In this document: in pieces, positions 9,532 through 10,020 of the stretch | Numbering within the stretch: position 1 is the stretch's first letter | Layout: every line of letters begins with the position of its first letter | Origin: a virus | Taxonomy: Duplodnaviria > Heunggongvirae > Uroviricota > Caudoviricetes | IMG/VR virus record: IMGVR_UViG_2565956714_000002 | Location: 1 to 14,094 of that record | Reading direction: 5' to 3' (one strand) | Length of the DNA stretch: 14,094 nucleotides | Made by a program: the position numbers and the translations under genes | The notes under the pieces: generated by a model | What the model saw: the letters and a program-made list of their open reading frames with translations, nothing else | Told to the model about the DNA's origin: nothing | Database searches by the model: none

Positions 9532-10020
9532 ATGAGTCTTTTGAATGAAGTTCAGAAATTCATTGAAGCCCATCCGGGGTGTACTTCCGGAGACATTGCA
9601 GATGCTTTTGCAGGTTACTCACGGCAGCGCGTTCTGCAGTCTGCAAGCAAGTTACGTCAGAGTGGGCGTGTGGCTCACCGTTGTGAAGGAGATACACGCA
9701 GACATTTCCCGCGCCTGACTGAGAGAGCGCAGGAGCCGGAACCACAACCAGTTCGTGAAACCAGACCTGTGCGCAATTTCTATGTCGGCACTAACGATCC
9801 CCGGGTGATTTTGTGCCTGACCCGCCAGGCTGAAGAACTGGAGTCAAGGGGCTTATACCGTCGTGCTGCAACGGTGTGGATGGCGGCATTCCGTGAAAGC
9901 CACTCCCAGCCAGAACGAAACAATTTTCTGGCGCGTCGTGAGCGGTGCTTACGGAAAAGCAGCAAGCGCGCTGCATCGGGTGAAGAGTGGTGTCTGTCAG
10001 GGAATTACGTGGGGGCTTAA
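9532..10020 (+). CDS. PerC-family transcriptional regulator homolog with N-terminal winged-helix-like extension, 162 aa
   Basis: Start set at ATG 9532 (AGGGGG 5 nt upstream); the ORF track begins at GTG 9526. The C-terminal segment AEELESRGLYRRAATVWMAAFRESHSQPERNNFLARRERCL matches the PerC/Pch signature as I remember it (LE..GLWRRAA..W ... RR..CL). Confidence 0.6.
   Translation: MSLLNEVQKFIEAHPGCTSGDIADAFAGYSRQRVLQSASKLRQSGRVAHRCEGDTRRHFPRLTERAQEPEPQPVRETRPVRNFYVGTNDPRVILCLTRQAEELESRGLYRRAATVWMAAFRESHSQPERNNFLARRERCLRKSSKRAASGEEWCLSGNYVGA

Follow-up and report, generated by a model that had tools for sequence, protein, structure and literature searches.

Two groups of small bacterial proteins resemble the C-terminal part of the protein analyzed here. 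PerC of EPEC and PchA, PchB and PchC of EHEC, which are carried by prophages, act as activators and counter-silencers of LEE1/ler, and Pch relieves the silencing exerted by H-NS, StpA and Hha and reduces H-NS occupancy at LEE1 (PMC4764244). They are single-domain proteins of 89–111 aa, with the PerC core in their N-terminal part. Other PerC-like proteins behave differently: some have no effect on LEE1 (PMC11773190, PMC6092414); PchD, PchE and PerC-like proteins of phage-inducible islands either fail to activate LEE1 or repress it (PMC11773190, PMC6092414, PMC7369912). In particular, repression of LEE1 has been observed for a PerC-annotated protein from a phage-inducible island of E. coli, which the authors suspected to be ANR-like (PMC11773190). 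The ANR proteins (Aar, Rnr and Cnr; NCBIfam model ANR_neg_reg, NF033650) form the second group. They are found alongside AraC-type regulators, on virulence plasmids and islands (PMC5570504), consist of a single domain of 39–80 aa (PMC4038620) and less than 10 kDa, and have no DNA-binding domain. One of them, Aar, is made up of 63 aa in three helices; it lacks DNA binding and directly contacts both AggR and H-NS (PMC5570504).

A longer protein containing the PerC core, YfdN (b2357), is encoded by the cryptic prophage CPS-53/KplE1 of E. coli K-12. It is annotated as 'uncharacterized protein' in this strain, and its gene was termed 'the K12 unique PerC homologue' in a study of O157 (PMC5931665). 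The window, i.e. the whole stretch of viral DNA that was analyzed (14,094 nucleotides), contains such a gene within a prophage. Its features, and those of the surrounding genes that matter here, are as follows (positions in the window, strand, nature).

1459–2622, minus strand: integrase gene
6092–6766, minus strand: gene of a CI-like S24 repressor (Pfam)
8711–9529, plus strand: replication-initiator-type gene with an HTH_36/DnaD_N N-terminus (Pfam)
8976–9080: iteron-like repeats inside the initiator gene, about 450 bp upstream of yfdN
9521–9526, plus strand: Shine-Dalgarno sequence AGGGGG, 5 nt before ATG 9532 and within the final codons of the preceding gene
9532–10020, plus strand: yfdN-type coding sequence, 162 aa, uninterrupted (open reading frame list, sequence)
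9532–9711, plus strand: predicted winged helix-turn-helix domain, residues 1–60 (AF2, Foldseek, profile)
9712–9798, plus strand: Pro/Glu-rich linker, residues 61–89 (about 29), predicted to be disordered (pLDDT 46–47)
9799–9960, plus strand: PerC/ANR-type three-helix module, residues 90–143 (about 54; Pfam, NCBIfam, AF2)
9961–10017, plus strand: C-terminal tail, residues 144–162, with a conserved W-x-L-x-G-x-[YF]-x-G motif (alignment)
10020–10673, plus strand: phage Dam N6-adenine methyltransferase gene (Pfam Dam, E 1e-45; PADLOC MTase_II, 2.7e-158)

The yfdN-type reading frame ends with the TAA codon at 10018–10020 and has two candidate starts, GTG 9526, chosen by RefSeq, which gives 164 aa, and ATG 9532, which gives 162 aa; the latter is common to 36 of the 40 aligned relatives. 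The two peptides quoted in the initial annotation lie at residues 1–50 (MSLLNEVQKFIEAHPGC...) and 103–140 (LESRGLYRRAATVW...RRERCL). The protein is identical to YfdN of K-12 MG1655 at 159 of 164 residues (97%) and shares with it its length, its two-domain layout and the types of its neighbors. The five substitutions include a Tyr-to-Cys change in the tail (residue 156 in the K-12 numbering, 154 here), and the neighbors that are truncated remnants in K-12, yfdO (replication gene) and yfdM (methyltransferase), are full length in the window. Of 5426 complete E. coli genomes, 2668 contain the DNA of yfdN, in most cases with 95–99% identity, under the RefSeq label "yfdN: PerC family transcriptional regulator". 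Homologs are also present in SfV, SfII, SfIV, mEp460, many Stx2c phages and one Stx2a phage, the Stx2c and Stx2a copies being nearly identical to the gene of the window, and the homolog of Salmonella phage ST64B (Sb43) is 68% identical. Finally, residues 1–161 match positions 15–166 of the 172-position profile PHROG 1324 ('transcriptional activator') with an E-value of 3e-78; this full-length match, together with the near-identity to the K-12 protein, identifies a YfdN-type phage protein. The gene is thus orthologous to yfdN and belongs to a lambdoid prophage of the SfV/CPS-53 type that has thrW as its insertion site. Neither the assignment to PerC nor the longer two-domain architecture is new, both being on record through the K-12 protein, the RefSeq name, PHROG 1324 and PMC5931665, so that we are dealing with an ordinary annotated phage early gene. 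The novelty implied by the initial annotation does not survive a comparison with a 97% identical K-12 protein, a RefSeq name used in thousands of genomes and a PHROG family matched end to end. As it stands, the finding is of low importance, since it concerns a long-catalogued K-12 y-gene that standard annotation names correctly.

The window begins with the end of proA (1–1254), followed by tRNA-Thr(CGT) (1369–1444) and by the lambdoid prophage. Ahead of the initiator gene, the plus strand carries YdaS/Cro-like and CII-like genes and an open reading frame of the Ash family (all from Pfam); dam is followed by a gene encoding no more than a LexA DNA-binding domain, then by rusA, a KilA-N gene, a frameshifted DUF968 gene, which takes its name from what RefSeq assigns in the syntenic prophage of E. 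coli N1286, and a gene for a Q-type antiterminator, which an IS1 interrupts at 13342. The yfdN gene is tightly embedded in this series: (i) the TGA stop codon of the initiator gene lies at 9527–9529, so that ATG 9532 begins 2 nt later; (ii) the yfdN stop codon overlaps the dam start (TAATG); (iii) the GGGGG ribosome-binding site of dam is supplied by the last yfdN codons. Translational coupling is also observed for the distant relatives at loci L083, L085 and L086, where the overlap is 4 nt. A promoter and terminator scan revealed no promoter-like or terminator-like site on the plus strand flanking yfdN and did not locate PR either; the GC content of yfdN, 0.55, is like that of its neighbors. 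Note that the SfV homolog contains an annotated dam promoter. Altogether, yfdN is an integral, translationally coupled gene of the early operon, in agreement with the initial annotation; it lies between the replication-initiator gene and dam and is not a moron.

The same arrangement recurs in the other loci compared. In every case the yfdN-type gene directly follows an initiator gene within the rightward early operon; this holds for the window, E. coli N1286, K-12, the distant relatives L062, L083, L085 and L086 and an Enterobacter phage-plasmid. Moreover, relatives at 69%, 35% and 26% identity, and likewise the Enterobacter phage-plasmid, preserve the order initiator, yfdN-type gene, methyltransferase, LexA-domain gene, rusA, KilA-N, DUF968 and Q. 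The methyltransferase is of the Dam or of the MT-A70 type and is missing in one case. In PADLOC searches, YfdN itself matches no defense system. Three short antisense open reading frames (9560–9745, 9780–9965 and 9791–10063) were also considered and found to be unsupported. The short PerC-family genes that we sampled lie outside any early operon, unlike the coupled yfdN, one being located past the lysis genes of a plasmid phage remnant and another beside IS elements.

The C-terminal module carries the PerC signature. A profile search with Pfam PerC (PF06069) aligned residues 98–149 with positions 5–56 of the 90-position model and gave 35.8 bits, well above the gathering threshold of 22.6 (E 1e-8), and all 40 aligned relatives match the same model. 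PerC homology, as put forward in the initial annotation, is therefore borne out, except that the core comprises about 52 residues rather than the C-terminal 45. The match stops short of the C-terminal third of the model, so that YfdN aligns with part of the PerC profile only. The module (pI 11.1) reads A-x2-L-E-x2-G-L-Y-R-R-A-A-x2-W ... R-x6-R-x2-C and hence contains the family core L-E-x2-G-L-[YFW]-x-R-A-A-x2-W followed by R...R-x2-C. Among relatives, L103, R111 and A112 are invariant and A100, A113, R129, R136 and C139 nearly so, and three short PerC-family proteins have the same core residues; their genes encode 102–111 aa, in keeping with the length that had been quoted as typical of PerC/Pch. 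Compared to the latter proteins, YfdN is larger (162 aa) and is not a small single-domain protein. Its similarity to the 104-aa Pch-type protein of an E. coli plasmid amounts to 41% identity over 44 aa (residues 100–143 of YfdN and 7–50 of Pch). Whereas about 50 residues of core are common to PerC, the Pch proteins and YfdN, the 40–50 residues that follow the core in PerC/Pch, i.e. their C-terminal half, have no counterpart in YfdN; conversely, YfdN has a winged helix, a linker and a W-x-L-x-G-x-Y-x-G tail, which the short PerC/Pch proteins lack.

The module is also similar to ANR proteins. Residues 96–142 align with positions 5–51 of the 54-position ANR_neg_reg model, with 21.9 bits (E 1.1e-4), which falls short of the curated cut-off of 32; among the 40 relatives, 29 match this model at E<0.01, the best of them with an E-value of 6.2e-9. 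The AF2 model consists of three helices in this region (residues 90–105, 109–122 and 126–143; pLDDT 93–96), which are also obtained when the module is modeled alone. Such a three-helix build with a conserved cysteine in the last helix has also been described for ANR proteins: Cys139 may be compared with the 'very highly conserved cysteine' noted in that family (PMC4038620). By contrast, the size of YfdN and its putative DNA-binding domain set it apart from ANR proteins. From these sequence similarities, proteins with a PerC core and ANR proteins appear to form one superfamily. A PDB sequence search using the full protein and the C-terminal profile gave no homolog, so that no solved PerC or ANR structure could be used as a template, and a Foldseek comparison of the C-terminal model with the PDB only returned generic TPR/MIT-like three-helix matches (E>0.3). 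As modeled, the C-terminal module thus bears no resemblance to a known DNA-binding fold.

The tail that follows the module is predicted with low confidence (pLDDT 43–65); within it, G157 and G161 hardly change even in relatives with only about 25% identity. The aromatic residue found at position 154 in nearly all relatives is replaced by a cysteine in the YfdN of the window, as in some distant relatives. We considered whether the tail is conserved solely through its overlap with the ribosome-binding site of the gene that follows; this explanation was rejected, as the W-x-L-x-G motif persists in relatives that have another gene downstream.

The N-terminal extension reported in the initial annotation is real, but its length has to be revised: instead of a domain of roughly 70 residues, we find a folded part of about 60 residues followed by the 29-residue linker. 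In the AF2 model, which was built on a 40-sequence alignment and has a mean pLDDT of 79.7, this part comprises helices 3–13, 19–25 and 31–44 and a β-hairpin wing (strands 47–52 and 55–60), with pLDDT values of 83–90. Foldseek superposes it on winged helices of the PDB belonging to SmtB/ArsR, MarR/MepR, BlaI/MecI, PerR and DsrD, with rmsd values of 1.6–2.8 Å over 56–68 columns and weak E-values (0.02–0.1); against viral models, only generic winged-helix matches were found. A profile built from 36 N-terminal domains matches the DNA-binding domain of BlaI (1p6r) in the PDB with an E-value of 1.2e-5 and MarR-family chains (2fa5) with an E-value of about 3e-4. The evidence from the sequence profile is stronger than that from Foldseek. 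Individual relatives display scattered Pfam matches to Penicillinase_R, MarR_2, PaaX and HTH_24, and no Pfam winged-helix model is significant on this YfdN protein alone. The domain is basic (pI 9.4), including its recognition helix and wing. The H1-H2-H3-hairpin topology of residues 1–60 is common to BlaI/MecI, MarR and ArsR/SmtB; unlike these repressors, YfdN has neither dimerization nor ligand-sensing parts. The fold predicted by AF2 and the sequence profile both place residues 1–60 among BlaI/MarR/ArsR-like winged helices, which supports the prediction of a basic winged helix of this kind and bears out the winged-helix character proposed at the outset.

When 1.84 billion representative proteins were scanned, only 99 relatives were recovered at E<0.001, including full-length two-domain proteins of 139–165 aa with 24–48% identity; the fusion is thus old and the family small. 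When 45 distinct alleles are compared, dN/dS is low in the PerC core (0.11) and the winged helix (0.13), higher in the linker (0.26) and highest in the tail (0.49), values that are to be taken as descriptive since the allele pairs are not independent. The linker, with about twice the dN/dS of the domains, also varies in length and sequence among relatives. In the tail, the synonymous rate is depressed, as expected where it overlaps the ribosome-binding site for the gene downstream. The purifying selection seen in both domains supports a coding role for the reading frame.

How might such a protein work? The reading that we prefer, with a probability of about 0.55, is that the winged helix targets DNA while the PerC/ANR module acts on a nucleoid or regulator protein, so that YfdN would serve the early program of the phage as a locus-specific counter-silencer or anti-regulator; this reading draws on sequence, predicted structure and analogy with PerC/Pch and ANR proteins. 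According to this scheme, yfdN would be transcribed together with the rightward early genes, so that its product would be expected after infection or induction and not in the repressed lysogen. The winged helix would then put YfdN on specific DNA sites, where the PerC/ANR module would contact another protein. Among the candidate partners, H-NS-family nucleoid proteins are the best documented, as they are displaced by Pch and bound by Aar, and AraC-type regulators constitute a second class. Most of the uncertainty of the model lies in this partner step. PchA did not co-precipitate H-NS (Fukui et al., unpublished observations), which makes partner binding uncertain even for Pch. The natural fusion of the PerC core to a separate putative DNA-binding domain suggests that the core is the partner-binding unit. 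Note that, the PerC core being shared with ANR anti-activators and its members acting in opposite directions, homology cannot predict the sign of the regulation.

Two other readings retain a role in transcription. The module could act as an ANR-like anti-activator, sequestering an activator (of the AraC/XylS type or another) or H-NS, with net repression as a result. This would account for the ANR_neg_reg matches of 29 of 40 family members, as well as for the three-helix layout with its conserved cysteine (PMC4038620), and the LEE1-repressing island protein annotated as PerC and suspected to be ANR-like (PMC11773190) offers a precedent. We nevertheless regard it as unlikely: YfdN lies below the ANR cut-off and above that of PerC, ANR proteins are single-domain proteins of less than 10 kDa, and a conserved basic winged helix with a BlaI profile match is hard to explain if DNA is not bound. 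In such a scheme, the N-terminal domain would serve oligomerization or the choice of the partner, and not DNA targeting. The initial annotation had raised the idea that the gene links the prophage to host virulence, YfdN activating LEE1/ler or other host virulence genes in the manner of PerC and PchA/B/C. The PerC core, its 41% identity over 44 aa to a Pch-type protein and its score above the Pfam gathering threshold are all compatible with this proposal, as are the nearly identical copies in Stx2c and Stx2a phages; the authors who deleted yfdN from a K-12 ler-lacZ reporter strain evidently thought that it might interfere (PMC5931665). However, yfdN is present in about half of the complete E. 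coli genomes, LEE-free K-12 included, implying that its selected role is not LEE-specific. This distribution, the missing C-terminal half of PerC/Pch (positions 5–56 of the 90-position profile being matched), the position of yfdN as a coupled early-operon gene and not a moron, and the variable effects of other PerC-like proteins, which are inactive on LEE1 or act on it in the opposite direction, all weaken the ler idea, and our literature search returned no report of an effect of YfdN on ler/LEE1. The virulence link is therefore unsupported and, in our opinion, very unlikely.

In phage lambda, the gene of the helicase loader P follows gene O, and yfdN occupies the equivalent slot if it is regarded as the gene of a replication accessory factor. 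YfdN would then assist the neighboring initiator at the origin of the phage, for example through binding to the DNA there or through recruitment of host proteins. The coupling to the initiator gene is indeed invariant, even where the N-terminus of the initiator has been exchanged (L085 and L086), and the position after the initiator is kept whether or not a methyltransferase gene follows; iteron-like repeats lie some 450 bp upstream, inside the initiator gene, and Pfam revealed no helicase-loader-type gene in the region. Set against this, position is weak evidence in mosaic lambdoid genomes, those relatives of the C-terminal module that have been characterized all act on transcription, and searches of Pfam, NCBIfam, PHROG and the PDB showed no similarity to a known loader or replisome organizer; a part in replication hence seems quite improbable to us. 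Lastly, yfdN could be an intact but silent passenger, devoid of a role here because the prophage is defective, as indicated by the Q gene cut by IS1 at 13342 and by the frameshifted DUF968 gene, and the unusual Cys154 would be in line with this. This is the least credible of the alternatives, to be entertained at long odds: the reading frame is full length, two other genomes contain copies with 100% DNA identity, purifying selection acts on the family, a cysteine at residue 154 occurs naturally in distant relatives, and K-12 retains yfdN in an even more decayed prophage.

Coming back to the counter-silencer or anti-regulator that we favor, a bolder version of it would be that YfdN-type proteins are the DNA-targeted form of the PerC/ANR proteins, the winged helix anchoring a module that binds H-NS-family proteins and thereby lifting the silencing of phage DNA after induction, and that PerC/Pch and ANR proteins are detached copies of this phage module. 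We hold this version to be doubtful. If it were true, the module would be a protein-interaction unit and not a DNA-binding part. The sites chosen by such proteins might include the adjacent origin and the nin region. Two gains are of modest value: a predicted winged helix for an N-terminal domain that was previously unannotated, and the sharing of the PerC core with the ANR anti-activators, owing to which the sign of regulation cannot be read from homology. Since yfdN is present in K-12 and in easily handled phages such as SfV and mEp460, it offers a cheap model for the poorly understood PerC/ANR module. As for K-12 YfdN itself, the sole phenotype that we found in the literature is an altered glycogen content upon overexpression, recorded in a genome-wide screen (PMC2853380).

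The YfdN protein of the prophage (162 residues) has a Cys at codon 154 (window 9991-9993), a position occupied by Tyr or Phe in nearly all close relatives, in which the tail motif reads W-[YF]-L-x-G. Judging from the alignment, this substitution is probably tolerated, because a few distant relatives also carry Cys there. In the SfV record (NC_003444.1), the yfdN homolog (29126-29611) has the annotated -35 and -10 elements of dam inside its 3' end, so that an internal promoter of the downstream methyltransferase gene may overlap conserved tail codons. A divergent two-domain YfdN-type gene with the same synteny is present at 2719-3213 of L089, the phage-plasmid locus of Enterobacter asburiae pJBIWA002_3 (NZ_CP074176.1). 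Its sole annotation is 'hypothetical protein'; the family is therefore lost to standard annotation at about 35-40% identity.

Downstream of dam lies a gene kept at the same position in all related phages examined:

10670-10996, + strand, 108-aa protein made up solely of a LexA DNA-binding domain (PF01726, E 3e-19)

The product has no S24 peptidase domain and may act as a LexA-like operator-binding protein that is not cleavable.

Upstream of yfdN, Rfam models detect two RNA genes back to back, both within the ORF 7649-8485 (+):

8009-8085, + strand, isrK Hfq-binding sRNA (63 bits)
8110-8197, + strand, C4 antisense RNA (82 bits)

The Pfam Phage_ASH match of this ORF (residues 117-210, nt 7997-8278) exactly covers these two genes; thus, one and the same stretch of DNA gives rise to both the RNA genes and the signal for an 'Ash protein'. 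A terminator-like hairpin at 8066-8079 agrees with the 3' end of isrK. Further on, the replication-initiator gene (8711-9529) contains an array of repeats:

8976-9080, + strand, 39-nt direct repeat in three overlapping copies

The copies, which are 62-100% identical to the reference copy, look like origin iterons, and these candidate iterons are placed in the same way as those of lambda, which likewise lie within the initiator gene.

Further downstream, towards the end of the window, lie the following features:

12213-13025 and 12917-13207, + strand, DUF968 gene as two overlapping ORFs (270 and 96 aa)
13225-13341, Q-type antiterminator gene, interrupted by IS1 after about 39 codons
13342-14094, IS1 element, whose end GGTGATGCTGCCAACTTACTGAT begins at 13342
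13397-13672, insA of IS1
up to the window end, insB of IS1

DUF968 is a single protein of 329-331 aa in relatives whereas it is split here; the gene is therefore likely a frameshift pseudogene. With its Q-type antiterminator gene cut by IS1, the prophage is defective for late gene expression.

At the other end, the features relevant to the insertion site are:

1369-1444, + strand, tRNA-Thr(CGT), adjoining proA
1459-2622, - strand, prophage integrase gene

The integrase gene follows the tRNA gene after 15 nt, which locates the prophage at this tRNA gene; we take the latter to be thrW.
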